Origin: a bacterium
GTDB taxonomy: Bacteria; Bdellovibrionota_C; UBA2361; CALJRW01
Reading direction: 5' to 3'
Assembly: GCA_031385045.1 (NCBI GenBank)
Contig: JANNBC010000001.1
Span: 1-41,629, forward strand
Length of the DNA: 41,629 nt
Positions 1-22,160 of this stretch are shown one piece after another (the stretch's first letter is position 1; each line of letters opens with the position of its first letter). The notes beneath the pieces were generated by a model, which searched no databases, was not told the origin of the DNA, and was given only the letters and a program-made list of their open reading frames with translations. The position numbers and the translations under genes were made by a program.

Positions 1-82
1 TAAAAACAACAAATATAGTAAAACCAACATGAATTTCCGAAAAAGTTTTTCGGAAATTCATTCTTGGGTTTACTATATTTAA
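1..82. repeat. Palindromic repeat element, copy 1 (possibly truncated by the window edge)
   Basis: Inverted repeat 11-80 with perfect core ATGAATTTCCGAAAAA-G-TTTTTCGGAAATTCAT (29-61). Bases 1-82 match 1078-1159 with 4 substitutions. Confidence 0.9.
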
Positions 83-120: not shown

Positions 121-837
121 TTAATTGTTACACTTTCCTGGACTATAGGCCGGAAGCTTAATAATAAAATGATTCTCAGCTACTGATAGCGGCAGAGAGC
201 CTAAGCCCTGAACTAAATCTTTTAACGAAGTAGCCTTTTTAGCATTAGAAATATTTTTAACTAAAGCTGGGAGATCGTTTACTAAAAGTGGATTATAATA
301 CTCAATGCTTTTATTAAGATTAAGAATAGAGGTAAAATAAATCTTATCACTTGGAAAAAGATTAGGATCTAAATAATCTGAATTAGTGGATGTTGGCTTA
401 CCTGTTTTAGGATCGTTTTTAAATTGATATCTTGAAAAAACCTCAGTAAATTTAGCAGCATTCTTGTCGGCACAATAATTTTTACCTTCGGAATCAGAGC
501 AAATAAATAAGGCAAGTGGCCCCTTCGGTAATTTAGATAAATCAAATTTAAAAATTGCACTACTATCATTAGGATTAGTTGAATCTAATAAGGTCTTGGT
601 AATCACCTTATCTTCATTTAAAGCCTCTAAAGTAACAATAACTTTTGCCTTTTGTTTCTTCTCTACTCGCTCTTGAAATTCATATTTAATGGCATCAAGA
701 TCACCAAAAACACAACGTTCGTCGAGAATTATTTTCACCGTTAAAGTCTTATCTTTTAAGGCTAAGGCTTTAACCTCAGCTGATAATTCCGAACCAACAA
801 GTAACAAAAAGGCAATTAAACAAGGGATAAATTTCAT
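121..837 (-). CDS. Exported hypothetical protein (238 aa)
   Basis: Signal-peptide-like N-terminus (MKFIPCLIAFLLLVGSELSA|E), GGAG RBS upstream, several Cys (LFICSDSEGKNYC, C-terminal KCNN). No family recognised. Confidence 0.8.
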   Translation of the reverse strand: MKFIPCLIAFLLLVGSELSAEVKALALKDKTLTVKIILDERCVFGDLDAIKYEFQERVEKKQKAKVIVTLEALNEDKVITKTLLDSTNPNDSSAIFKFDLSKLPKGPLALFICSDSEGKNYCADKNAAKFTEVFSRYQFKNDPKTGKPTSTNSDYLDPNLFPSDKIYFTSILNLNKSIEYYNPLLVNDLPALVKNISNAKKATSLKDLVQGLGSLPLSVAENHFIIKLPAYSPGKCNN

Positions 838-1159: not shown

Positions 1160-3832
1160 TTACTTCTTCAGATTATCAAATTCAGATTGCAGAATTAGAT
1201 CTCCAGTATAGATACCCTCAGAGACCAGTAAATGACTTTCTACATTCGAAACTGTAATTTCCGATAAGATAAAGTTAATCACATTTTGACCAACGGCGAC
1301 AGGTAATAATTCTTGATTATCAACAACTACCCAAGAGCCATCAGCTTTTTTCACAAAATCTCCTTGCCTCACATCGACAGCTCGTTTTAAGCCAGCTTTT
1401 GTTAAGACAACATGTTTCTGACTGACGGTAATTTTTTCCGGGCCATAAGTTAATTTAATTAACCCTATTTTTTCAGGACCTTCTACTACCTTTAGAACTT
1501 CCAGTGTTTGCCCAGCTACTCCTAATAAATGATCGCCTACCTGAACATTCTCAACTAAAACTTTTTCGTTATTAGCCAAGGTAATCTTAGTACCAGGAGG
1601 GAAACATCCGTCACTGCCACGATTACAAGCACAAGTCCAACAAGCATTAGGATCGGCTGAGATCTGAGTCGAAGTAAAATTATCATTTCCATTATTACCA
1701 TTATTGATCGTAATGTTTCCAGAACTATCAACTCGAGTAATAGTGGCATTGGAATTAGTATTTCCAAAGAATAAGTCTGCGATACCGCGAAAATTTCTAA
1801 AATTAAACGCTGAATCTACCCCATCACCTGGAACACAAACTATCCGATAATCAGGACAGAACTGGTTTGTACCATTCCCACGATCGACTTGAGTTGGCAC
1901 AGGAACATTATCACATGAATTAACTTTACAAGTGATTGAACATTCCGAAGCAGTTCCATTACTGGCTCCTAGATCGCAATCCTCACCAAGATCAACTATT
2001 CCATCACCACAATATGGATCGACATTACAATCTGAGTTACAGATTGCACCAGCATTTCCTGCTTGAACACCAGAATCTAGTTTAAAGTCATCACCGTCAC
2101 ATAGCTCATCATTATTTCTAAGGCCATCACCACAATATGGAATGACTTCACATGACGGAGTACAAACTTCTCCTGTGGAGCCGGCTTGAATTCCATCTGC
2201 GGTTCCAAAGTCAGTACCATCGCACAGTTCATTTACATTCCTTAGGCCATCACCACAGTATGGGTTAATCTGACACTGAGCATTACAAAGTAAATTATTA
2301 GCACTTACTTGAAGACCTTCCTCCAGCCCAAAATCAGTCCCATCGCATAGCTCATTGTTATCTCTTACTCCATCACCGCAATATGGATCTACATTACAAT
2401 CAGAGTTACAGATTGCACCTTTAGCCCCCGCTTGAATACCTGAGTCTAGTTTAAAATCATCCCCATCACAGAGCTCATTATTATTTCTAAGATTATCTCC
2501 ACAATATGGAATTACTTCACATGTCGGGTTACAAACCTGTCCATTCAGACCTGCTTGAATTCCTTCCGCAGTTCCAAAGTCAGTTCCATCACAAAATTCA
2601 TTGGCATTTCGTTTTCCATCACCACAATATGGATTAACTTGGCACTGAGCATTACATGTCACAGCAGGACTAATCGTAGTTGCAAGAATACCGAAATCTG
2701 TGCCATCACAAAGTTCGTTAGAATCTTTAATTCCATCACCGCAATATGGATTAATTTGGCAACTGGAGTTACAAACTTCACCTAGCTTGCCAGCTTGACT
2801 GCCAGCATCTAATTTAAAATCGTTGCCATCACATAGCTCGTTATCATCTCTGACACCATCACCACAATATGGATTTACTTGGCAGCTTGAGTTACAAACT
2901 TGTCCATTAGTACCTACTTGAACTCCTTCCGCAGTTCCAAAGTCAGTACCATCGCAAAGCTCATTTAAGTTCCTTCGGCCGTCACCACAGTATGGATTAA
3001 TCTGACACTGTGCATTACAAACTTGCCCATTTAAACCAATTTGAACACCTTCATCAATTCCAAAATCAATACCATCACAAAGTTCATTGTTACCTCTGAT
3101 GCCATCACCGCAATAGGGATTGATTTCACAATTAACAGAACAGGTAGCATTAGGATGAGTAACAGAACCTAAGTTAGTAGAATCACACTCCTCAATTCCA
3201 GCTTGAATTTCGCCATCACCACAATAAGTACATTTGAATCCATTACTACGACAACCGGCAACATAGCCATTATTTCCACTGGTAATTCCATAATCACAGG
3301 ATTCATGATTAGCAGCATCAATGTAACCATCACCACAAGTAATTACTTTACAGTTATTTCTACAAACTTTTCCGGTTGGAACATCGCTTCCATCACATTC
3401 CTCCGAGGGATCGTTCACATCACCATCGCCACACTTAGTGCAATTAGGGCGACATCCCAGACGCGTTGCGGGATCATTAAAATCACAAGTTTCACCTTTT
3501 GGTAAATCAATTGTAGTTGTCCAAACTCCATCTCCACAGTATGGAAGCTTGCAATCCTTGCGGCAATTATCTGTTAAATTTGCATTGCCATCATCACACT
3601 CCTCACCAAGTAAAACGAGCCCATCTCCACAATATGAACAGGTAAAACATTCACAATGACTACAACCACAAATATTTGGATCGGAAACAATGGTTGACTC
3701 CTGACCAGGAGGACAAGAAACTTGAATCGGCGCACGATCTTGCGCTAGCAGTATAATTGGAAAAATTGTTAGAAGTAAAAGGCTACAAAGTAACCTCCCA
3801 TCTGGTATGGAAAAAACGAGTTGTCTAGACAT
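1160..3832 (-). CDS. Exported Cys-rich repeat protein (Myxococcus Cys-rich/DUF4215-like CGDG repeats) with C-terminal Hint domain, 890 aa
   Basis: Signal peptide (..PIILLA|QDR), 15 CGD(G/N) repeats (e.g. CGDGLVLLGEECDDGN), then G|CFPPGTKITLA...TVSQKHV...HLLVSEGIYTGDL Hint motifs. Confidence 0.9.
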   Translation of the reverse strand: MSRQLVFSIPDGRLLCSLLLLTIFPIILLAQDRAPIQVSCPPGQESTIVSDPNICGCSHCECFTCSYCGDGLVLLGEECDDGNANLTDNCRKDCKLPYCGDGVWTTTIDLPKGETCDFNDPATRLGCRPNCTKCGDGDVNDPSEECDGSDVPTGKVCRNNCKVITCGDGYIDAANHESCDYGITSGNNGYVAGCRSNGFKCTYCGDGEIQAGIEECDSTNLGSVTHPNATCSVNCEINPYCGDGIRGNNELCDGIDFGIDEGVQIGLNGQVCNAQCQINPYCGDGRRNLNELCDGTDFGTAEGVQVGTNGQVCNSSCQVNPYCGDGVRDDNELCDGNDFKLDAGSQAGKLGEVCNSSCQINPYCGDGIKDSNELCDGTDFGILATTISPAVTCNAQCQVNPYCGDGKRNANEFCDGTDFGTAEGIQAGLNGQVCNPTCEVIPYCGDNLRNNNELCDGDDFKLDSGIQAGAKGAICNSDCNVDPYCGDGVRDNNELCDGTDFGLEEGLQVSANNLLCNAQCQINPYCGDGLRNVNELCDGTDFGTADGIQAGSTGEVCTPSCEVIPYCGDGLRNNDELCDGDDFKLDSGVQAGNAGAICNSDCNVDPYCGDGIVDLGEDCDLGASNGTASECSITCKVNSCDNVPVPTQVDRGNGTNQFCPDYRIVCVPGDGVDSAFNFRNFRGIADLFFGNTNSNATITRVDSSGNITINNGNNGNDNFTSTQISADPNACWTCACNRGSDGCFPPGTKITLANNEKVLVENVQVGDHLLGVAGQTLEVLKVVEGPEKIGLIKLTYGPEKITVSQKHVVLTKAGLKRAVDVRQGDFVKKADGSWVVVDNQELLPVAVGQNVINFILSEITVSNVESHLLVSEGIYTGDLILQSEFDNLKK
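1163..1606 (-). other. Hint (Hedgehog/intein-like) domain of the 890-aa protein, Cys1 = Cys743
   Basis: Block A CFPPGTKI, VENVQVGD strand, block B-like VSQKH, AVDVRQGD, block F-like VINF, terminal HLLVSEGIYTGD. Confidence 0.85.
2015..3115 (-). repeat. Intragenic tandem array: 9 units of 41 aa (123 bp; one unit is 39 aa)
   Basis: Consensus YCGDGxRxxNELCDGxDFxxxxGxQxGxxGxxCNxxCxVxP; 8x41+39 = 367 aa = 1101 bp. Confidence 0.92.
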
Positions 3833-3984
3833 GACTTAACCTTAAAACGATTGACACCTGTGTATTAGGATTCAGATGGGATGAAATTAGATTCTAGAAC
3901 TCCCCAACTAGCTATTTCCAGTAATAGCTTTGCTAGAAAGCTATTCATTACAATGACTTAATAGGCATTTAGTTTATTTGAACA

Positions 3985-4022
3985 AAATCTGAGTTTACCA
4001 AATTAATGATAAACTCAGATTT
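3985..4022 (-). terminator. Putative terminator or stabilising stem-loop after the 924-aa gene
   Basis: AAATCTGAGTTTA-N12-TAAACTCAGATTT, ~45 nt past the stop codon; only a short U-tract on the minus strand. Confidence 0.5.
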
Positions 4023-4065
4023 CAACTTGCTTAATTAAAAGGACATTAACTCATTACCAAAGAAT

Positions 4066-6840
4066 TTACTGATTAATTATCTCCTGAGCAGTAAGATCCC
4101 CAGTAACAATTCCATCTGAAAGCACCATATGGTTATCTAATTGATCATCACCTTCTAAGCGGATATTTAATACTTTTTGGCTAGATTTAATCGGAAGATA
4201 TTTTACTTTGGTAACTTCTGCTTTTGTTCCATTTAAAGTTAAGAGATCTCCAGTTTTAACATCACGAGCTAGAATAACCCCATCATTAGTTTTTACTGGA
4301 TGTTTCTGAGTCACTCGAACAGATTTATCCCCCACAGCGATTTCTACAATTGCTTCAGATTCAGAAGATTCTAGAACATTCTTAACTTTAGCGATTTTAC
4401 CACTTACTGGATTTAAAACTTCTTCTCCCGCGTGTATATCTTGAATTTCTTTTTCTTCTCCATTCGCCATTAAAATTTTGGTTTCTGGCACAAAGCAACC
4501 TTCTAATCTTAAAGCTGCACAGGTCCAACAAACATTCTCTTGGAAGGCACATGTATTTTCATAAGGTACGCGCTTATTATCCTTGTTGTAATAATGAACC
4601 GTTGTATCAATCACAGTTTTATTTGTTGGATCACTCCCCCAATTGTATACAAAACCATCAACTCGGGCGATCCCTTTAGTGCCATCACCAGCTCCAAAAA
4701 ATAATTTTCCAGAACCATCATAGTCATGATTATTATTAACAAAAGCATCTTCTAATTGCTGCGTCCAACCTGCTGGCCGTAGTGCATTAGAAGTTCCACC
4801 AGTCAAATCATTAACAAGTGTTGGTTTCCATCCCCAAGCATCATTAACTGTTAGGATTTCACCATTTTGATCAACATCGATCCCTTCAATTGCTTCCAGA
4901 ATCCTTGTGCCTTCATCGATAAATTGTTGTGTGCTAAGCTTTCCATCTTTATCTAATGAATTTGTATAATACCAACCACCGTAAACTCCATTCTCACGAG
5001 AATGATAACCAAGCACACAAACTCTCATATTAAACATGGTATAATTACCCATATCTTCAACTTTACCTTGTTGATCTTCTGGATACTCCAAACCTAGGCA
5101 ACAATTGGCCTCACCGTAATACTGCTCACTTGGATCACGCCCACAAGCATCATCCTCAACTTTACATGTTGAAGAACAAGTTGCGTTTGGATTAATTGCC
5201 AGAATTTCTGGATTAATATCATTCCCATCACATTCTTCAAGCTCTGAACAAACCGTATATCCTGCACTGATCCCTCTTGAACTACAAGTGTAATCACTTA
5301 CATATTCAAGAACTCCAGCACTATTTTTAATCCAAGAACTATTTGGATGAGGCTGACCTGGACCTGCTGGTTGAACCTCACAAACGCCACTACCACGAAC
5401 TCCATCACCACAGTAATTTTTCACAATTACTTTACATTGCTGTGGATTACAAAATAGAGCACTTTCGGGAATGTTTTTAGAATTAGTATATCCAGAAAAG
5501 TCTGTCCCTTCACATTCCTCTGTTCCATTTACTAGACCATCACCACAATAAGGTGTTACTTTACATGTCTCCGGATTACAGGAAGCTAAGGGATGAACTG
5601 GACTTTTTAAATAATGACAACCATCACACTCTTCATTGCCGTTAACTGCATTATCACCACAGTAAGTTTTAACTTCCACAGTGCATTTATCGGTACATGT
5701 AATGGCACTACGCGGAAGTTCTGGATGAAGATCTAAATATGCTTGAGCAACATCATTGCCATCGCATGTCTCATCAGAGTTAGCGATCTTATCACCACAA
5801 TATTCTTCTACGATAACCTTGCAGTCGCTGGTACAGACCAAAGCATCTCGAGGAATGTTGGATTTATCTGGATTACGTTTATAAAATAAATCAAAATCAA
5901 TACCATCACACTCCTCATCTTCCGTGCAATAGCCAGTATTATTTGTGAAATCAACACAGAGTGCTGGCGTGGCAACACCATCACCACAGTATTTCTTAAC
6001 ATGTACTTCACAACTGGCAGTACAGATTAAATTTGCAAGAGGAATATTATTAGGATTTTTATAATTACCAAAATTTGTTCCTTCGCAAGTCTCGTTACTG
6101 GCTAATTGCCCATCTCCACAATATGAATTTATTTTGCAAGTAGCAGAGCAGCTCGCATTAGGATTTGTAACTGTTCCTAGATTGGTAGAATCGCACTCTT
6201 CAACTCCTGCTTGAATTTCACCATCGCCACAGTATGTACATTTAAAGCCATTACTTCGGCAACCAGCGACATACCCACTATGCCCACTTGTAATTCCATA
6301 GTCACAAGTCTCATGATTAAGATTATCGATATAACCATCTCCACATGAAACTAACTTACAATTATCTCGACAAACTTTACCGGCAGGCTTATCTGTTCCA
6401 TCACATTCTTCGGAAAGATCATTCCGAAGATTATCACCACACTTAGTACAATTGGTACGACATCCCGTACGAGTGGCAGGATCATTAAAATCACAAGTTT
6501 TACCCTTTGGTAAATCAATAGTGGAAGTCCATACTCCATCTCCACAGTATGGAAGTTTACAATCTTTACGACAGTTATCCGTTAAATTCGCATTTCCATC
6601 ATCACATTCCTCACCTTGCAAAACTAGTCCATCTCCACAATAGGAGCAGGTAAAACATTCACAGCTACTACAACCACAAATATTAGGATCGGAAACTAAA
6701 GTTGGCTTTTGTCCAGGAGGACACGAAACATTTGAGGAAATCCGATCTTGAGCAAAGAGTAATGTTGGTAAAATTGTTATGAGTAAAAGGCTACAAAGTA
6801 ACCTCCTACAAGAAACCGAAGAAATGAACTGTCTAGACAT
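4066..6840 (-). CDS. Exported Cys-rich repeat protein with C-terminal Hint domain, 924 aa; paralogue of 1160-3832
   Basis: Signal peptide (..PTLLFA|QDR), 11 CGD(G/N/K) repeats, first ~245 aa collinear with the 890-aa protein, G|CFVPETKILMA...RVTQKHPV...HMVLSDGIVTGDL. Confidence 0.9.
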   Translation of the reverse strand: MSRQFISSVSCRRLLCSLLLITILPTLLFAQDRISSNVSCPPGQKPTLVSDPNICGCSSCECFTCSYCGDGLVLQGEECDDGNANLTDNCRKDCKLPYCGDGVWTSTIDLPKGKTCDFNDPATRTGCRTNCTKCGDNLRNDLSEECDGTDKPAGKVCRDNCKLVSCGDGYIDNLNHETCDYGITSGHSGYVAGCRSNGFKCTYCGDGEIQAGVEECDSTNLGTVTNPNASCSATCKINSYCGDGQLASNETCEGTNFGNYKNPNNIPLANLICTASCEVHVKKYCGDGVATPALCVDFTNNTGYCTEDEECDGIDFDLFYKRNPDKSNIPRDALVCTSDCKVIVEEYCGDKIANSDETCDGNDVAQAYLDLHPELPRSAITCTDKCTVEVKTYCGDNAVNGNEECDGCHYLKSPVHPLASCNPETCKVTPYCGDGLVNGTEECEGTDFSGYTNSKNIPESALFCNPQQCKVIVKNYCGDGVRGSGVCEVQPAGPGQPHPNSSWIKNSAGVLEYVSDYTCSSRGISAGYTVCSELEECDGNDINPEILAINPNATCSSTCKVEDDACGRDPSEQYYGEANCCLGLEYPEDQQGKVEDMGNYTMFNMRVCVLGYHSRENGVYGGWYYTNSLDKDGKLSTQQFIDEGTRILEAIEGIDVDQNGEILTVNDAWGWKPTLVNDLTGGTSNALRPAGWTQQLEDAFVNNNHDYDGSGKLFFGAGDGTKGIARVDGFVYNWGSDPTNKTVIDTTVHYYNKDNKRVPYENTCAFQENVCWTCAALRLEGCFVPETKILMANGEEKEIQDIHAGEEVLNPVSGKIAKVKNVLESSESEAIVEIAVGDKSVRVTQKHPVKTNDGVILARDVKTGDLLTLNGTKAEVTKVKYLPIKSSQKVLNIRLEGDDQLDNHMVLSDGIVTGDLTAQEIINQ
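4069..4497 (-). other. Hint domain of the 924-aa protein, Cys1 = Cys782
   Basis: CFVPETKI, IQDIHAGE, TxxH motif TQKH, ARDVKTGD, VLNI, HMVLSDGIVTGD. Confidence 0.88.
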
Positions 6841-7007: not shown

Positions 7008-7436
7008 TCAAAAGATCTTTCCAAATAATTCTTTAGCCTTACCAAAAAGACCAGATTCACCTTTAAATATATTTAAAATTGTTCCTAACTTACCACCAAA
7101 TAACGTACTTACTAAATCAATTCCCTTATCAATAATACTTGGCTTATTAATCATATTATTGTTTTCATTGCTAGTAATTTGGTTTGATTGATTAATTGAA
7201 TTAGTTGCATTGGGACTTAACAAGCCTACTTGCTGGAATATATTTCCAACGACTTGCAGTATTATATTACTAAAGCCAGTGAGCAGATTATCCATAATTG
7301 TATGCTGGCACTGCCCAGGCATGCTTGCTGACATTGAATTTGTCATCGCTGACTGTTGTGAAACTGCACTATTAACGTTTGCTAATTCGAATTGCGATGG
7401 GACTGCCGATGTATTGATTGGTTTAATTTCTAACAT
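7008..7436 (-). CDS. Hypothetical protein (142 aa), S/N/Q-rich with amphipathic Lys/Gly/Phe-rich C-terminus
   Basis: Strong RBS (AAAGGAGAG) just upstream of the ATG; no family recognised. Confidence 0.75.
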   Translation of the reverse strand: MLEIKPINTSAVPSQFELANVNSAVSQQSAMTNSMSASMPGQCQHTIMDNLLTGFSNIILQVVGNIFQQVGLLSPNATNSINQSNQITSNENNNMINKPSIIDKGIDLVSTLFGGKLGTILNIFKGESGLFGKAKELFGKIF

Positions 7437-8685: not shown

Positions 8686-9534
8686 ATGGCTAAAATTGAA
8701 ACAATTGCTGTGGTTGGTGCTGGGCAAATGGGTCTAGGAATTGCAGAGCTCTGCGCTAGCAAAAACTATCAGGTTCAACTCTTTGATAGTAATTCTCAAA
8801 TATTAAATAACGCTAAAATCCGGTTAACTGCCTCAGGTCTCAAACTAGTAGAAAAAGGTAAAATTACCTCTGTGCTTCAAGCTCAGATTATTAATAATAT
8901 TCAAACCTTTAATGATCTAAGCAAACTAAAAGATGCCGATCTGATCATTGAAGCTGTAATTGAAAGTTATGATGTTAAATCTTCCCTCTTTAAAAATCTA
9001 TCTGCCGTTGCCAAAGAATCAGCGATCTTAGCCTCTAATACTTCCTCACTATCCATTACTAGAATGGCGAACTCTTTTATTCGTCCTGATAAATTTATTG
9101 GTTTGCATTTCTTTAATCCAGCTCCAGTAATGCCACTAGTTGAAGTTATTGCTGGACTAAAAACTAGCTTAACGACGAAACAGTTAGTAATTGCTTTTGC
9201 TCAAACCTTAGAGAAAGAAGCAATCACAGCCAATGATACTCCCGGATTTATTGTAAACAGAATCTTGTGTCCAATGATTAATGAAGCCATTTTCCTTTTG
9301 GCCGAGGGTAACAATGCTCAAGAGATCGATCAGGCATTAAAACTAGGTGCGAATCACCCAATGGGGCCCTTACAATTGGCTGACTTTGTAGGACTAGATA
9401 CTTTATTAAGAATCTTAGAAATTTACCAAGAAGAATTTGGAGAAGACAAGTATCGACCTTGCCCACTACTTCGCCAATATGTTAACGCTGGATGGTTGGG
9501 ACGAAAATCTGGCAAAGGTTTTTATACTTACTAG
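8686..9534 (+). CDS. hbd: 3-hydroxybutyryl-CoA (3-hydroxyacyl-CoA) dehydrogenase
   Basis: GAGQMG Rossmann motif, IEAVIE, ASNTSSLSIT, GLHFFNPAPVM, PGFIVNR, HPMGPLQLADFVGLD, GRKSGKGFYTY. Confidence 0.9.
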   Translation: MAKIETIAVVGAGQMGLGIAELCASKNYQVQLFDSNSQILNNAKIRLTASGLKLVEKGKITSVLQAQIINNIQTFNDLSKLKDADLIIEAVIESYDVKSSLFKNLSAVAKESAILASNTSSLSITRMANSFIRPDKFIGLHFFNPAPVMPLVEVIAGLKTSLTTKQLVIAFAQTLEKEAITANDTPGFIVNRILCPMINEAIFLLAEGNNAQEIDQALKLGANHPMGPLQLADFVGLDTLLRILEIYQEEFGEDKYRPCPLLRQYVNAGWLGRKSGKGFYTY

Positions 9535-10817
9535 ACTGCGGCCTCTAGGATCTTTCTTAGTAATTCACTATTATGAGAATGACCTGTCATGTTAGCAGTA
9601 ATCTTTCCAACGATTGGCCGACCAAGAAGATAAATATCCCCGATCATATCTAAGATTTTGTGCCTAACTGGCTCATCTGGAAAACGTAACTCTGAGTTAA
9701 TAACTCCATCTTCTCCAATTAGAACAAAATTATTAAATCTTCCACCTTGAGCTAAGCCTTGCTTCTGAAGGTAATCAATGTCTTTTACAAAACCAAAAGT
9801 GCGACAGCTAGCAATTTCATTTTGATAATTTTCAAAACTATCCATTTTAAAAATGTAATGTTGCTCCCCGATTGGTTGTTGATAATTTAAGGTGTAATCA
9901 ATGATTAGTTCTTCCGCCGGTTCTAAACGAATAAAGGCTTCACCCTTACGAACTTCAATAGTTTTAGTGACCATTAATTCGGGAATAGTTGCCGACTGCT
10001 CCAAGATTCCAACTTCTTGAAAGATCTTACAGAACTCAATCGCCGAACCATCCATTACAGGAACTTCTTCATTACACTTAATTAACAGATTGGTAATACC
10101 AGCAGCATGCAAGGCGGACATTAAGTGCTCAATTGTGGAGACTTGAGAATCTGCATTCTTAATTGTTGTGGCGTAACCAGTCGTGCTGACATAATTGACA
10201 TGAGCTGGAACAGCTTGCTTACTTCCAGGGCCAGCAAAGTGAATGCCAGAATTTTCAGGAAGTGGCTCCAAGATTAGTCCTGATTTACGACCGCTATGCA
10301 CACCTACTCCATAGAGAATACTACTACCTGCTAAGGTTTTTTGCTGTCTAGATTTACCAACAAAAAAATCATTTTGAAAAACATCACTAGTAATCTGGCA
10401 GCTCTGCTCAGATAAACTTTCAATTTCTGGCAAATTTCCCAGATTAGAGTTTTTAGCTGACAAGGCTCTGTTGACTACTTGTTGAATCACTAATAAATCA
10501 AGTGGCTTTTCAATAAAATCGATTGCTCCTAATTGTGTGGCTCGGACAGCTGTAGAAATAGTTGCATGACCACTAATCATCACAACAGGTAAAAGACTAT
10601 CTAGGTTACGAATCTTCTCGAGAGTTTCCATGCCATCCATCCCTGGTAGCCAAATATCTAGGAAAACTAAAGCTGGTGATTTCTCTTTAATAATTTCTAA
10701 AGCCTGATTGCCATTATTAGCATGACAACAACTAAGGCCAAGGTCTTCTAAGACATGGCTTAATGTTTCACAAATACTTTGTTCATCATCTACAATCAGC
10801 GCTAAATTATTATCCAT
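9531..10817 (-). CDS. lpxC: Fusion: response-regulator receiver domain + UDP-3-O-acyl-N-acetylglucosamine deacetylase
   Basis: REC: IVDDE, LDIWLPGMDG, MISGH, DFIEKP. LpxC: QKTL..GVGVHSG, STIEHLMSAL, EVPVMDGSA, RTFGF, LRFPDEPVRHKILDMIGD, TGH. ATG at 10817 preferred over the TTG at 10829. Confidence 0.9.
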   Translation of the reverse strand: MDNNLALIVDDEQSICETLSHVLEDLGLSCCHANNGNQALEIIKEKSPALVFLDIWLPGMDGMETLEKIRNLDSLLPVVMISGHATISTAVRATQLGAIDFIEKPLDLLVIQQVVNRALSAKNSNLGNLPEIESLSEQSCQITSDVFQNDFFVGKSRQQKTLAGSSILYGVGVHSGRKSGLILEPLPENSGIHFAGPGSKQAVPAHVNYVSTTGYATTIKNADSQVSTIEHLMSALHAAGITNLLIKCNEEVPVMDGSAIEFCKIFQEVGILEQSATIPELMVTKTIEVRKGEAFIRLEPAEELIIDYTLNYQQPIGEQHYIFKMDSFENYQNEIASCRTFGFVKDIDYLQKQGLAQGGRFNNFVLIGEDGVINSELRFPDEPVRHKILDMIGDIYLLGRPIVGKITANMTGHSHNSELLRKILEAAV

Positions 10818-10957
10818 AGTAAATTTCAAAAAATAATTACAAAAATAGTAATTTACGGCGAGTGTGAATAATGGATTTATCCAATTTCACACCGCAAAAA
10901 TAAAATAGATAGTGTTTCATTAAAACCTTTAATAGCGACAAAGAATTTTAAGAAACA

Positions 10958-19928: not shown

Positions 19929-22160
19929 ATGATTAATCAATTAACCCGCCAGATTACGTTTTCCGCGATATTAATCATATTAAGTGCTTTTGACTGCTTG
20001 GCGATTGATTTTTTAGTTCCTGCTAATAAATTAGCTCCAAAAGCTTGGAATCCAGTAACAGAAGAATGGAGCAATGAAACAATCAAGGGATATGCCGAAA
20101 CCCAAACTACTGCTCAAGTTGTTGAGATTCAAAACCTTGAGGAGATTAACGATTCAAATTTAAAATTAATTCTTTGTTTACACACCCAAGTTCTTAAATT
20201 AACTCCTAGTGATACCTTCTATGCTTTCACCGAGTTTAATACTTGGAATACCACATACCATCCTACTACCCTACCAGATGGTTCTCCAATGCCTGTTGCC
20301 TCTTCCACACAAGATTCAATTCAAGCAATTAATGCCAACATCTTAAGCGTCTCAACTCCGTCAACTTCGGAAGCACTTTGTCCAAACATTGGAGATGATA
20401 AATATCTTGGTTTGCAAGTAGTCTTCACAAAAATTAACCCTAACCTCAATGCCTATCTGCTTTATGGTGGGAAACTTTCAAAAGTTGGATCGAGCCTACC
20501 AACTGGACTATTAACAGCTACTGTTCCTGCAGATAAAAGTTCCTCATTTATTAACGGATTATCAGAGAACTTTAATACAGCGGTAGTTGGGTCTGAAGGA
20601 TTAAAATTTGTTCCATTTGGAAACATTTCTTTAGAGCCAGGAATTCAGCTAACAAAATCTGTCACTCTACCAGAAGGCCAATGTGGAGTTGATGATCTGG
20701 AAGAATTATCTGTAGTTAGTAATACCAATGTTAAATTCTGTTTTAAAGTGACTAATACAGCCAAGGCACCATTGCTAAATGTAAATTTAAATGATGATAC
20801 ACTAGTTGTTAATCTAAGTGATTCATTAGTCGGATTAACAGATCAAGATGCTGATGGCCAAGCTGATGATTTAGCAATTGGTTCTTGGGCGACAGCAGAA
20901 TATTCCTACACAATTAATGAATCACTAGAAAACAGTGCCACGGCTTCTGGTAGTGCTATCAATAGTCAAGACCAAAGTGCTGTTAGAATTTCTATTTGTG
21001 GAAATGAAGTTGTTGAGGCTGGAGAAGAATGTGACACGCTAAATGGTTGTACTGCTAATTGTACTTTTGAAGATCTATGCGGAAATCAAGAAATCGATCC
21101 AGGCGAAGATTGTGATAGCACCGAGGGATGTAACAGTAATTGCCAGTTTGCGGTTTGTGGAAATGGCATTGTCGAGGAAGACGCTGGTGAGCAATGTGAT
21201 CACGGGAAAGAACAGACTGAATGCTCGAGTGATGAACCTGATTGTTTTGAAAACCAAAAACTATCAGAAGCCCCACCAGTTGAACTAGCATGTAGCGATA
21301 CTTGTCTTTTAGAAATTTGTGGTAACGGCATCTTAGATTCCGGCGAAGAATGCGATGATAGCAATCAAGTCAACGGAGATAATTGTAGCGCCTCTTGTCT
21401 GCAAGAAGTCTGCGGTAATGGAGTTCTAGATTACAATGAAGAATGTGACTATGGAGACACCCTAAATGGCGATGGCTGTAGTAGTTTCTGTCGACTCGAA
21501 GTCTGTGGCAATGGAATCGTCGATCTCACAGAGCAATGTGACGACGGAAATGCAACCTTAAAAGATGGTTGTAGCAATATCTGTCAGCTAGAAGAAGATT
21601 GTCAGGATGGTAAATGTGCCCCAACAATTGAAATCTTTAATTGTGTTGATGAGAATGGTCAGCAGAATAATCTTGACCGCTGTCAAGGTTGTGGAGGTGA
21701 CGGACTAAGTTGTATTTCATGCGTCTCTAAAAGTAATATTGAAGACCAATTAAAAATGGATGGTGCCTCAAAGCAACTGGCCATCTTAATTAAAAACCTA
21801 AATAACAATATCTTAAAACGCTCCATCACTGATAAGCTTAAAAAAGACATTCTGGAATCAAATCTAAAAGTTGAAGATTTATATCTAACAAGCTGGTCCC
21901 TATCTTGGTCATTACCAATGATTACCAAAGCCTGTAGCTCAGTGTTTTGTACTACTGAGGATCTCTCTGGGCTAGCGACACTCTACAAAAGTAAGCTCTT
22001 AGAATTAGTTCAAGAAGCAAGAAAATCATCCCGAATCTTTAAGCGATTAACTGGCAAGAAGAAATCAGCTCAAAAATTCTTATCCGCAGTAAATGAACAA
22101 TACGATTCTGGTATTCAGACTGCGGGTAATGTTACTACAGCAACAAGTGTCTGTTTTTAA
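19929..22160 (+). CDS. Exported Cys-rich repeat protein (DUF4215-like) with a DUF11-like Ig domain and an uncharacterised C-terminal module, 743 aa
   Basis: Signal peptide, PGIQLTKSV...FCFKVTNT...LLNVNLNDD...NSATASG (DUF11-like), repeated CGNG..D.GEECDDGN...DGCS..C, then [13 protein letters not shown] and a helical tail. Confidence 0.85.

Follow-up and report, generated by a model that had tools for sequence, protein, structure and literature searches.

Two Hint-terminated cysteine-rich precursors and a linked partner gene in a Bdellovibrionota_C genome: a candidate two-protein autoprocessing module

The window analysed here is a stretch of 41,629 nucleotides from a bacterium of the GTDB lineage Bdellovibrionota_C (assembly GCA_031385045.1, contig JANNBC010000001.1, positions 1 to 41,629 of the forward strand). 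Near its start, two tandem genes encode cysteine-rich proteins with a signal peptide and a terminal Hint domain, referred to as precursor 1 (P0002) and precursor 2 (P0001), and they are followed by a smaller gene for a conserved protein, referred to as the partner (Table 1). The original prediction, made from the sequence alone, described the two tandem precursors correctly and treated them as self-sufficient; the partner gene lies just outside the region it covered and was missed. No other feature of the locus is as informative as this gene.

Each precursor carries a passenger, made up of Cys-rich repeats and a variable domain, between the signal peptide and the Hint domain. The signal-peptide call is a hydrophobicity heuristic, not a SignalP result: the N-terminal 19-residue window is the sole strongly hydrophobic one (1.9 in P0002 and 2.3 in P0001; next best 0.9 and 1.3). 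A simple heuristic scan of both proteins found neither a lipobox pattern nor a later membrane span, in agreement with the original prediction. The repeats, first read as CGDG, take the form CGD(G/N/K), with 11 copies in P0002 and 15 in P0001, and match DUF4215 and TIGR02232 in profile scans, the DUF4215 score of P0002 (26.8 bits) being slightly below the cut-off of 27. The passengers contain 65 (P0002) and 73 (P0001) cysteines and each Hint domain contains one. A conserved junction between passenger and Hint had also been claimed; Gly|Cys-Phe is present in both proteins, and the claimed spacing of the junction Arg did not hold, as this residue is at position -4 in P0002 and at -5 in P0001. The two proteins are 80% identical across their first 244 amino acids (aa) and 34% identical in the Hint domain, and the last passenger domain of P0002 resembles another paralogue in the same genome. 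In a same-genus genome, the counterpart at the position of P0002 (L054:6135-6824, minus strand) measures only 229 aa and consists of a signal peptide, a low-complexity linker and a Hint domain 73% identical to that of P0002.

Table 1. Positions of the features of the locus in the window.
Feature	Position	Strand	Remarks
Precursor 1 (P0002, 924 aa)	4066..6840	(-)	Signal peptide, 11 Cys-rich repeats, ~220-aa variable domain, terminal Hint
Cys-rich repeat region, precursor 1	5161..6639	(-)	Residues ~68-560
Hint domain, precursor 1	4069..4497	(-)	Cys1 (C782) codon 4495-4497, His847 in block B
Gly914-Asp915 of precursor 1, at His-Asn position	4096..4101	(-)	Then 9-residue tail
Precursor 2 (P0001, 890 aa)	1160..3832	(-)	Signal peptide, 15 Cys-rich repeats, ~100-aa variable domain, terminal Hint
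Cys-rich repeat region, precursor 2	1913..3631	(-)	Residues ~68-640
Hint domain, precursor 2	1163..1606	(-)	Cys1 (C743) codon 1604-1606, His807 in block B
Gly877-Asp878 of precursor 2, at His-Asn position	1199..1204	(-)	Then 12-residue tail, helix predicted
Partner gene (238 aa)	121..837	(-)	N-terminal hydrophobic signal-like segment, beta-sandwich model
Partner motif Cys42-x-x-Gly45-Asp46-x-Asp48	694..714	(-)	
Partner Ser214	196..198	(-)	Most conserved non-Cys residue (149/150)
~145-bp palindromic repeat, two perfect hairpins	1016-1160 and 1-82		Flanks partner gene on both sides

The terminal domains measure 143 aa (P0002) and 148 aa (P0001) from Cys1 to the end, close to the ~145 aa predicted. 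Profile searches uphold the Hint assignment in part: Vint exceeds its cut-off on P0002, the remaining Pfam Hint-family matches are weak, and Hint_2 has no match in either protein. The AlphaFold model of the P0001 Hint domain (predicted local distance difference test score, pLDDT, 92) indicates that the terminal domains of both proteins have the Hint fold. It aligns with the solved Hints 2lwy and 6tmm with Z 18.8 (for 2lwy, root-mean-square deviation 1.6 over 130 aligned residues) and with the Hedgehog Hint 1at0 with Z 17.6, the comparison the original prediction had pointed to. Cys1 and block B, which reads TQKH (844-847) in P0002 and SQKH (804-807) in P0001, are intact as predicted. In the model, Asp148 aligns with the final residue of the inteins 6riz (125), 2imz (440) and 1dq3 (454), and therefore Gly-Asp occupies the position of the intein His-Asn. 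The P0001 tail is modelled as confident helices (149-159) that extend the domain. Because Gly-Asp replaces His-Asn and Leu, which is not a nucleophile, follows, the sequences exclude canonical splicing for both proteins, as had been claimed. The window genome (2.83 Mb) encodes four Gly-Asp Hints, the two further paralogues sharing the ending of P0001 and P0002. No match to the window Hint was found in the plasmids or phages searched.

Conservation was scored in a family set of 75 non-redundant Hint members (82 prior to de-duplication). The ending Gly and the ending Asp are each present in 74 of the 75, a count that is partly circular since up to 26 of the inputs were found by a pattern containing Gly-Asp, while 41 matches from the phylum were chosen by profile. 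The block-B His is present in 74 of 74 members, and position 1 is Cys in 71 of 73 and Ser in the other two. Gly precedes position 1 in 65 of 73, the junction Arg is found in 60 of 65, Gln stands four residues after the Asp in 71 of 75 and block F has Asn in 73 of 75. The residue after the Asp is never Cys, Ser or Thr. Tails range from 9 to 34 aa, those of the window (9 and 12 residues) agreeing with the predicted length of about 10, and their pattern hydrophobic-x-x-Gln-x-x-Leu is conserved. With tails this short the payload is N-terminal, as predicted, unlike that of the PT-HINT polymorphic toxins, which in the published passages carry the toxin C-terminal to the Hint. The two Hint domains of the window are only 34% identical, both paralogues have the same ending and 74 of 75 members keep it; thus the ending is not due to chance, and the sequences point to selection rather than decay, as the original prediction had argued. 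In two loci (L011:1495-1968 and L016:1480-1977), Ser stands at Hint position 1 and the preceding Gly is lost, and the block-B His, the Gly-Asp and an intact partner are kept.

A gene homologous to the partner, of ~240-270 aa, follows each of the three Hint loci in the window genome, and a profile search recovered 328 clusters at 50% identity (E<=0.001). Pfam gave nothing above cut-off in the 39 of 150 members scanned or in the window copy, and NCBIfam gave no family common to two of the 150 members. The predicted structure (pLDDT 90) is a beta-sandwich with helices; the best matches of the fold searches (E 0.016 in Foldseek, Z 4.7 in VIA) are not clear ones, and weak beta-sandwich, pilin and C2 resemblances in VIA were judged untrustworthy. 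An Atlas search with the partner gave no usable match, and one partner searched in plasmids gave none. The conserved residues are four Cys, Gly45, Asp46 (148/150), Asp48, Lys125, Asp164, Tyr167, Ser214 and Pro229; in the model Asp46 begins a helix and Ser214 follows one. By a rough heuristic, 101 of the 150 partners start with a short signal-peptide form and 35 with a long N-terminal extension that includes a hydrophobic anchor, and 14 starts are doubtful. Homology between partner and Hint was considered and rejected (probability 0.2%). The partner was also rejected as an immunity protein, since one partner family is found throughout while the passengers are unrelated.

The linkage of Hint and partner was surveyed in 124 genomes of the phylum with a Hint profile and a partner profile. 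Because the partner profile was built from a protein search made without gene context, the linkage count is not circular. There are 41 Hint matches with E<1e-30, spread over 23 genomes; every one of them lies within 6.5 kb of a partner, which in 34 cases is found no more than 600 bp downstream on the same strand. None of the eight weaker Hint matches has a partner nearby. The partner is present in 23 of 23 genomes that have a strong Hint match, and a Hint lies near 38 of the 52 partner matches. No partner was found near the His-Asn Hints of the same phylum. Copy numbers of Hint and partner are 4 and 3 in the window genome and 7 and 7 in G030, and in locus L069 the module occurs twice in tandem, both times with a separate partner. 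Thus, Hint and partner duplicate as units. Distances among Hints also correlate with distances among partners (r 0.59, 47 pairs, 0 of 2000 permutations), the pairs being drawn from 67 Hint open reading frames (ORFs), 51 with a partner in the locus; kinship alone would yield part of this correlation.

The passengers of Gly-Asp Hints are unrelated to one another. Outside the window they bear, for example, dockerin domains or lipoprotein-like or pilin-like N-termini, and they are swappable on the Hint. Genes of TadE/TadG type adjoin the module in 15 of the 37 related loci that were surveyed, and most of the 15 belong to two families. Pilin-like N-termini with Gly-Asp Hints occur inside type IV/Tad minor-pilin clusters (L056, L058, L061-L064, L066, L067, L070, L049:7642-9396 and L104:2270-4045); those of L049 and L104 fit the pilin pattern by eye, not by Pfam. 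Cys-rich passengers of a similar kind are also found in the window genome with two other terminal domains that are not Hints, which suggests that the Hint belongs to a set of alternative C-terminal tags.

The Gly-Asp ending itself is already published. Bürglin 2008 (PMC2362128) describes a bacterial C-terminal 'Hint-like' subgroup that includes STIAU_1829, MXAN_6253, plu1731, MED297_11140 and two more proteins, and states that it was noted earlier by Dassa and Pietrokovski. As in the window, this subgroup has a terminal Hint on signal-peptide proteins; in the alignment of additional file 16 of that paper, read by eye, six of six sequences have Gly-Asp, with Gln four residues later, and share Gly-x-Glu after block A and Asn in block F. 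However, the subgroup has a common upstream domain with two conserved Cys, and five of the six have a longer tail with Leu-Pro-x-x-Trp, whereas window-type Hints have unrelated passengers, the junction Arg and Gly, a short tail and a partner gene that follows. The passages of the paper that deal with the subgroup mention no partner and no chemistry. The original prediction had left room for the subtype being already characterised; this proved true of the Gly-Asp-x-x-x-Gln ending, while the flanks differ and no study of the chemistry was found, so that in the text accessible the subgroup is chemically unstudied.

Four look-alikes of the Bürglin subgroup form their own clade (100/99) in a tree built without the published sequences themselves; no partner was seen for them, and the branch that leads to this clade is long and arises among forks with weak support. 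These four tailed Gly-Asp Hints have no partner within 6 kb on each side (L109-L111) or in the genome (G006), and the sequences look as if the long conserved tail and the partner were alternatives. In L109:878-6567 (Pseudoalteromonas xiamenensis, NZ_CP072135.1) the tailed Hint gene follows a PKD-domain gene, and three annotated ORFs there might be one interrupted gene. This layout resembles the one reported for Bd2400 of Bdellovibrio bacteriovorus. Bd2400 was reportedly described by Dori-Bachash in 2009 as a C-type bacterial intein-like (BIL) domain with PPS-1 upstream, secreted and cleaved N-terminally in vitro. We incline to equate the C-type BIL with the Bürglin subgroup. The C-type BIL reportedly comes from predatory bacteria, and the same-genus relative of the window genome is labelled Bdellovibrionota. 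Where PPS-1 is reported to lie upstream of the C-type BIL, a comparison of 27 window-type Hint members, made without a PPS-1 model, found no common upstream domain beyond a short Cys/Arg motif. No named Bdellovibrio protein was among the matches of the protein searches, and a published qPCR primer had no match in the genome contigs searched.

The other known Hint types differ in more basic ways, as far as the published passages describe them. The Hedgehog Hog domain consists of a Hint plus a sterol-recognition region (PMC9163320). Hedgehog proteins resemble the window proteins in their signal peptide, N-terminal payload, Gly|Cys-Phe junction and terminal Hint without His-Asn, but hold the sterol-recognition region in cis, while the window Hints extend only 9-12 aa past the Asp and have a separate partner gene. 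The A-type BIL 2lwy is the closest solved structure to the window Hint both in fold and in sequence (E 8e-15). A- and B-type BILs are likewise hosted by variable surface proteins; however, the A-type keeps the terminal His-Asn where the window Hints have Gly-Asp, and the B-type (PMC9185962) has a terminal Cys, Ser or Thr not preceded by His-Asn, which the window Hints do not have. Vint proteins carry VWA and Vwaint upstream and no signal peptide, whereas the window proteins have a signal peptide and no VWA match. Lastly, the TadE/F/G minor-pilin tips of the Kil system (PMC12075869) recall the TadE/TadG-type genes beside related modules, of which there are none in the window; the words 'Hint' and 'intein' have no occurrences in that text, which, in the part available, describes no Hint and no partner.

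These results are consistent with a two-protein module in which the partner helps to resolve the Hint thioester, likely by transfer to an envelope acceptor, and this reading is given an even chance. Precursor and partner would both be exported and folded with disulfides, as their signal-like N-termini and cysteine content suggest. By established Hint chemistry, a thioester forms at Cys1 with the help of the block-B His (PMC9163320, among other sources), and by analogy Cys1 would here place the last Gly of the passenger in a thioester, to be cut at Gly|Cys. No branch resolution would follow, because Gly-Asp replaces His-Asn and no Cys, Ser or Thr comes after it; with both His-Asn and the +1 nucleophile absent, the thioester would therefore have to be resolved from outside. 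The partner would then bind the Hint and supply in trans what the Hedgehog sterol-recognition region supplies in cis, its Cys-x-x-Gly-Asp and Ser214 site presenting a nucleophile, which might be Ser214 itself or else a molecule or protein of the envelope bound there. The outcome would be covalent attachment of the passenger to the cell surface; for some lineages a pilus tip is the probable site, a placement drawn from the neighbourhoods of relatives and not from the window locus. The Hint would thus work as a transferable C-terminal tag by which interchangeable passengers are attached. The fuller version, a ligation system in which the Gly-Asp Hint tag activates whatever passenger is fused to it and a separate exported transfer protein of undescribed fold takes or steers the acyl group through an Asp/Ser site and so fixes the passenger to the envelope or pilus tip, is tentative.

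Several results weigh against the two-protein module, and some of them are expected under other explanations. No obligatory nucleophile is found among the partner residues; Ser214 is present in 40 of 44 linked copies, and to judge by the model Asp46 and Ser214 may both be structural. A partner without an obligatory nucleophile would suit a system of cleavage only, in which the Hint serves as a tag for export or sorting that is later removed by hydrolysis of its thioester, and the partner binds it as chaperone, receptor or timer without supplying an acceptor. This explanation is possible, if doubtful. It predicts the gene linkage equally well, published passages report N-terminal cleavage without ligation in BIL domains, the similar passengers with two other terminal domains are as expected for interchangeable sorting tags, and a single partner may follow two Hint genes (in the window, G041 and G030). 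However, the decay of a polar partner site in orphan partners, those without a nearby Hint, and the junction Arg and Gly would seem to exceed the needs of plain hydrolysis. The orphan comparison was read by eye from raw counts, with four linked fragment rows and three of the 14 orphans, which are fragments, left out: of the 44 full-length partners linked to a Hint, 37 keep both the Cys-x-x-Gly-Asp motif and Ser214 intact, against four of the 11 orphans that could be evaluated, a small contrast in which four of the 11 (two intact, two degenerate) lack upstream DNA. Cys113 and Cys122 are retained in all 11. Lys125, considered as an isopeptide acceptor, is weakened as a candidate by the same comparison, being present in 34 of 44 linked partners but in nine of 11 orphans too.

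The gaps in the linkage also count against the module and favour the view that the Hint works alone, without any action of the partner on it, and that the two are co-regulated parts of a surface or pilus-tip cassette. Among the 52 partner matches, 14 have no Hint nearby, three of them beside TadE genes. Only nine of 25 metagenome loci contain a partner (two near-identical, one equal to an already-counted genome), and the 16 Hint loci without a visible partner include many short contigs. Four loci (L056, L062, L067 and L075) have no partner despite 4 kb on both sides, and pilin-like Hint fusions flanked by N-methyl pilin genes are mostly without one in the locus. This explanation is nonetheless improbable, given that the linkage holds for 41 of 41 strong Hint matches whatever their passengers and neighbourhoods, also at loci without pilus genes, that modules are duplicated together with their partners and that the motif is lost in orphans. 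Further points weaken the case for transfer. Kin are non-independent in all of the linkage and conservation counts. No Tad genes lie nearby in the window, and the TadE genes of its genome are on other contigs. A passenger is absent from the same-genus counterpart of P0002, whose junction is degenerate and lacks both the Gly and the Arg. The invariant Glu at Hint position 45/46 aligns with Gly-x-Glu of the VMA and PRP8 inteins, and two attempts to compare it with the Hedgehog general base Asp46 produced no Hedgehog alignment. Very unlikely, in turn, is an atypical splicing reaction, in which the terminal Asp would cyclise and the amine of the freed tail would attack the thioester, so that the tail is joined to the passenger. 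An intein ending in Asp has been reported. The tail pattern is conserved, and A-type BILs are described to splice without a +1 nucleophile (PMC9185962, among other sources). However, the penultimate His is absent (Gly in 74 of 75), block F has Asn rather than Asp (73 of 75), the tail is modelled as confident helices that continue the domain, and the partner would be left unexplained.

The role of BIL domains in their hosts has been open since they were first described, and a non-splicing Hint with a small, soluble and conserved partner is a directly testable system. No description of the partner family or of a short-tailed, partner-linked Hint was found in the literature searched, which did not include the paper on the C-type BIL or the chapter by Dassa and Pietrokovski. 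If the partner directs transfer, the module would be a new route to covalent surface display, a possible ligation tool and a bacterial model for how Hedgehog ligation could arise. With a separate transfer protein it would be a Hedgehog-style ligation with acceptor recognition on a separate gene, an analogue of sortase in Gram-negative, probably predatory, bacteria. If the partner only triggers hydrolysis, it would still be the first partner-controlled Hint found in the literature searched.

The ~145-bp palindromic repeat that flanks the partner gene has about ten close copies and further partial ones elsewhere in the genome, in the manner of repetitive extragenic palindromic (REP) sequences or miniature inverted-repeat transposable elements (MITEs). 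It is probably outside the system; one of its hairpins also scores as a two-way terminator, and the copy between precursor 2 and the partner could affect read-through. Promoter-like sites were no commoner than in shuffled sequence. Upstream of precursor 1, between it and a mreB-like gene, an Asn/Gln/Ser-rich 142-aa ORF (window 7008-7436, minus strand) has no Pfam match and holds the same position in the same-genus genome. At window 9531-10829 (minus strand), a response-regulator receiver domain is apparently joined to an LpxC-like domain, as read from the translation.

Two further groups of exported-looking proteins were observed. A Cys-rich repeat protein with a signal-like start (window 19929-22160, plus strand) ends in a ~165-aa domain without a Pfam match. 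The same domain ends four more exported-looking proteins of the genome (C53, C25, C2 and C55), one protein of this kind sits directly downstream of the C55 partner, and the domain is possibly an undescribed C-terminal sorting domain. In addition, the members of an exported family have in common the C-terminal ~330 aa, which include an EF-hand-like stretch and match nothing in Pfam (L002:4750-11946, minus strand; L038:3752-5626; L039:3761-5608; L043:2905-5037; L046:4360-6426). Genes of this family are neighbours of the C7 Hint gene and of four orphan partners, and three of these partners lie in TadE clusters.

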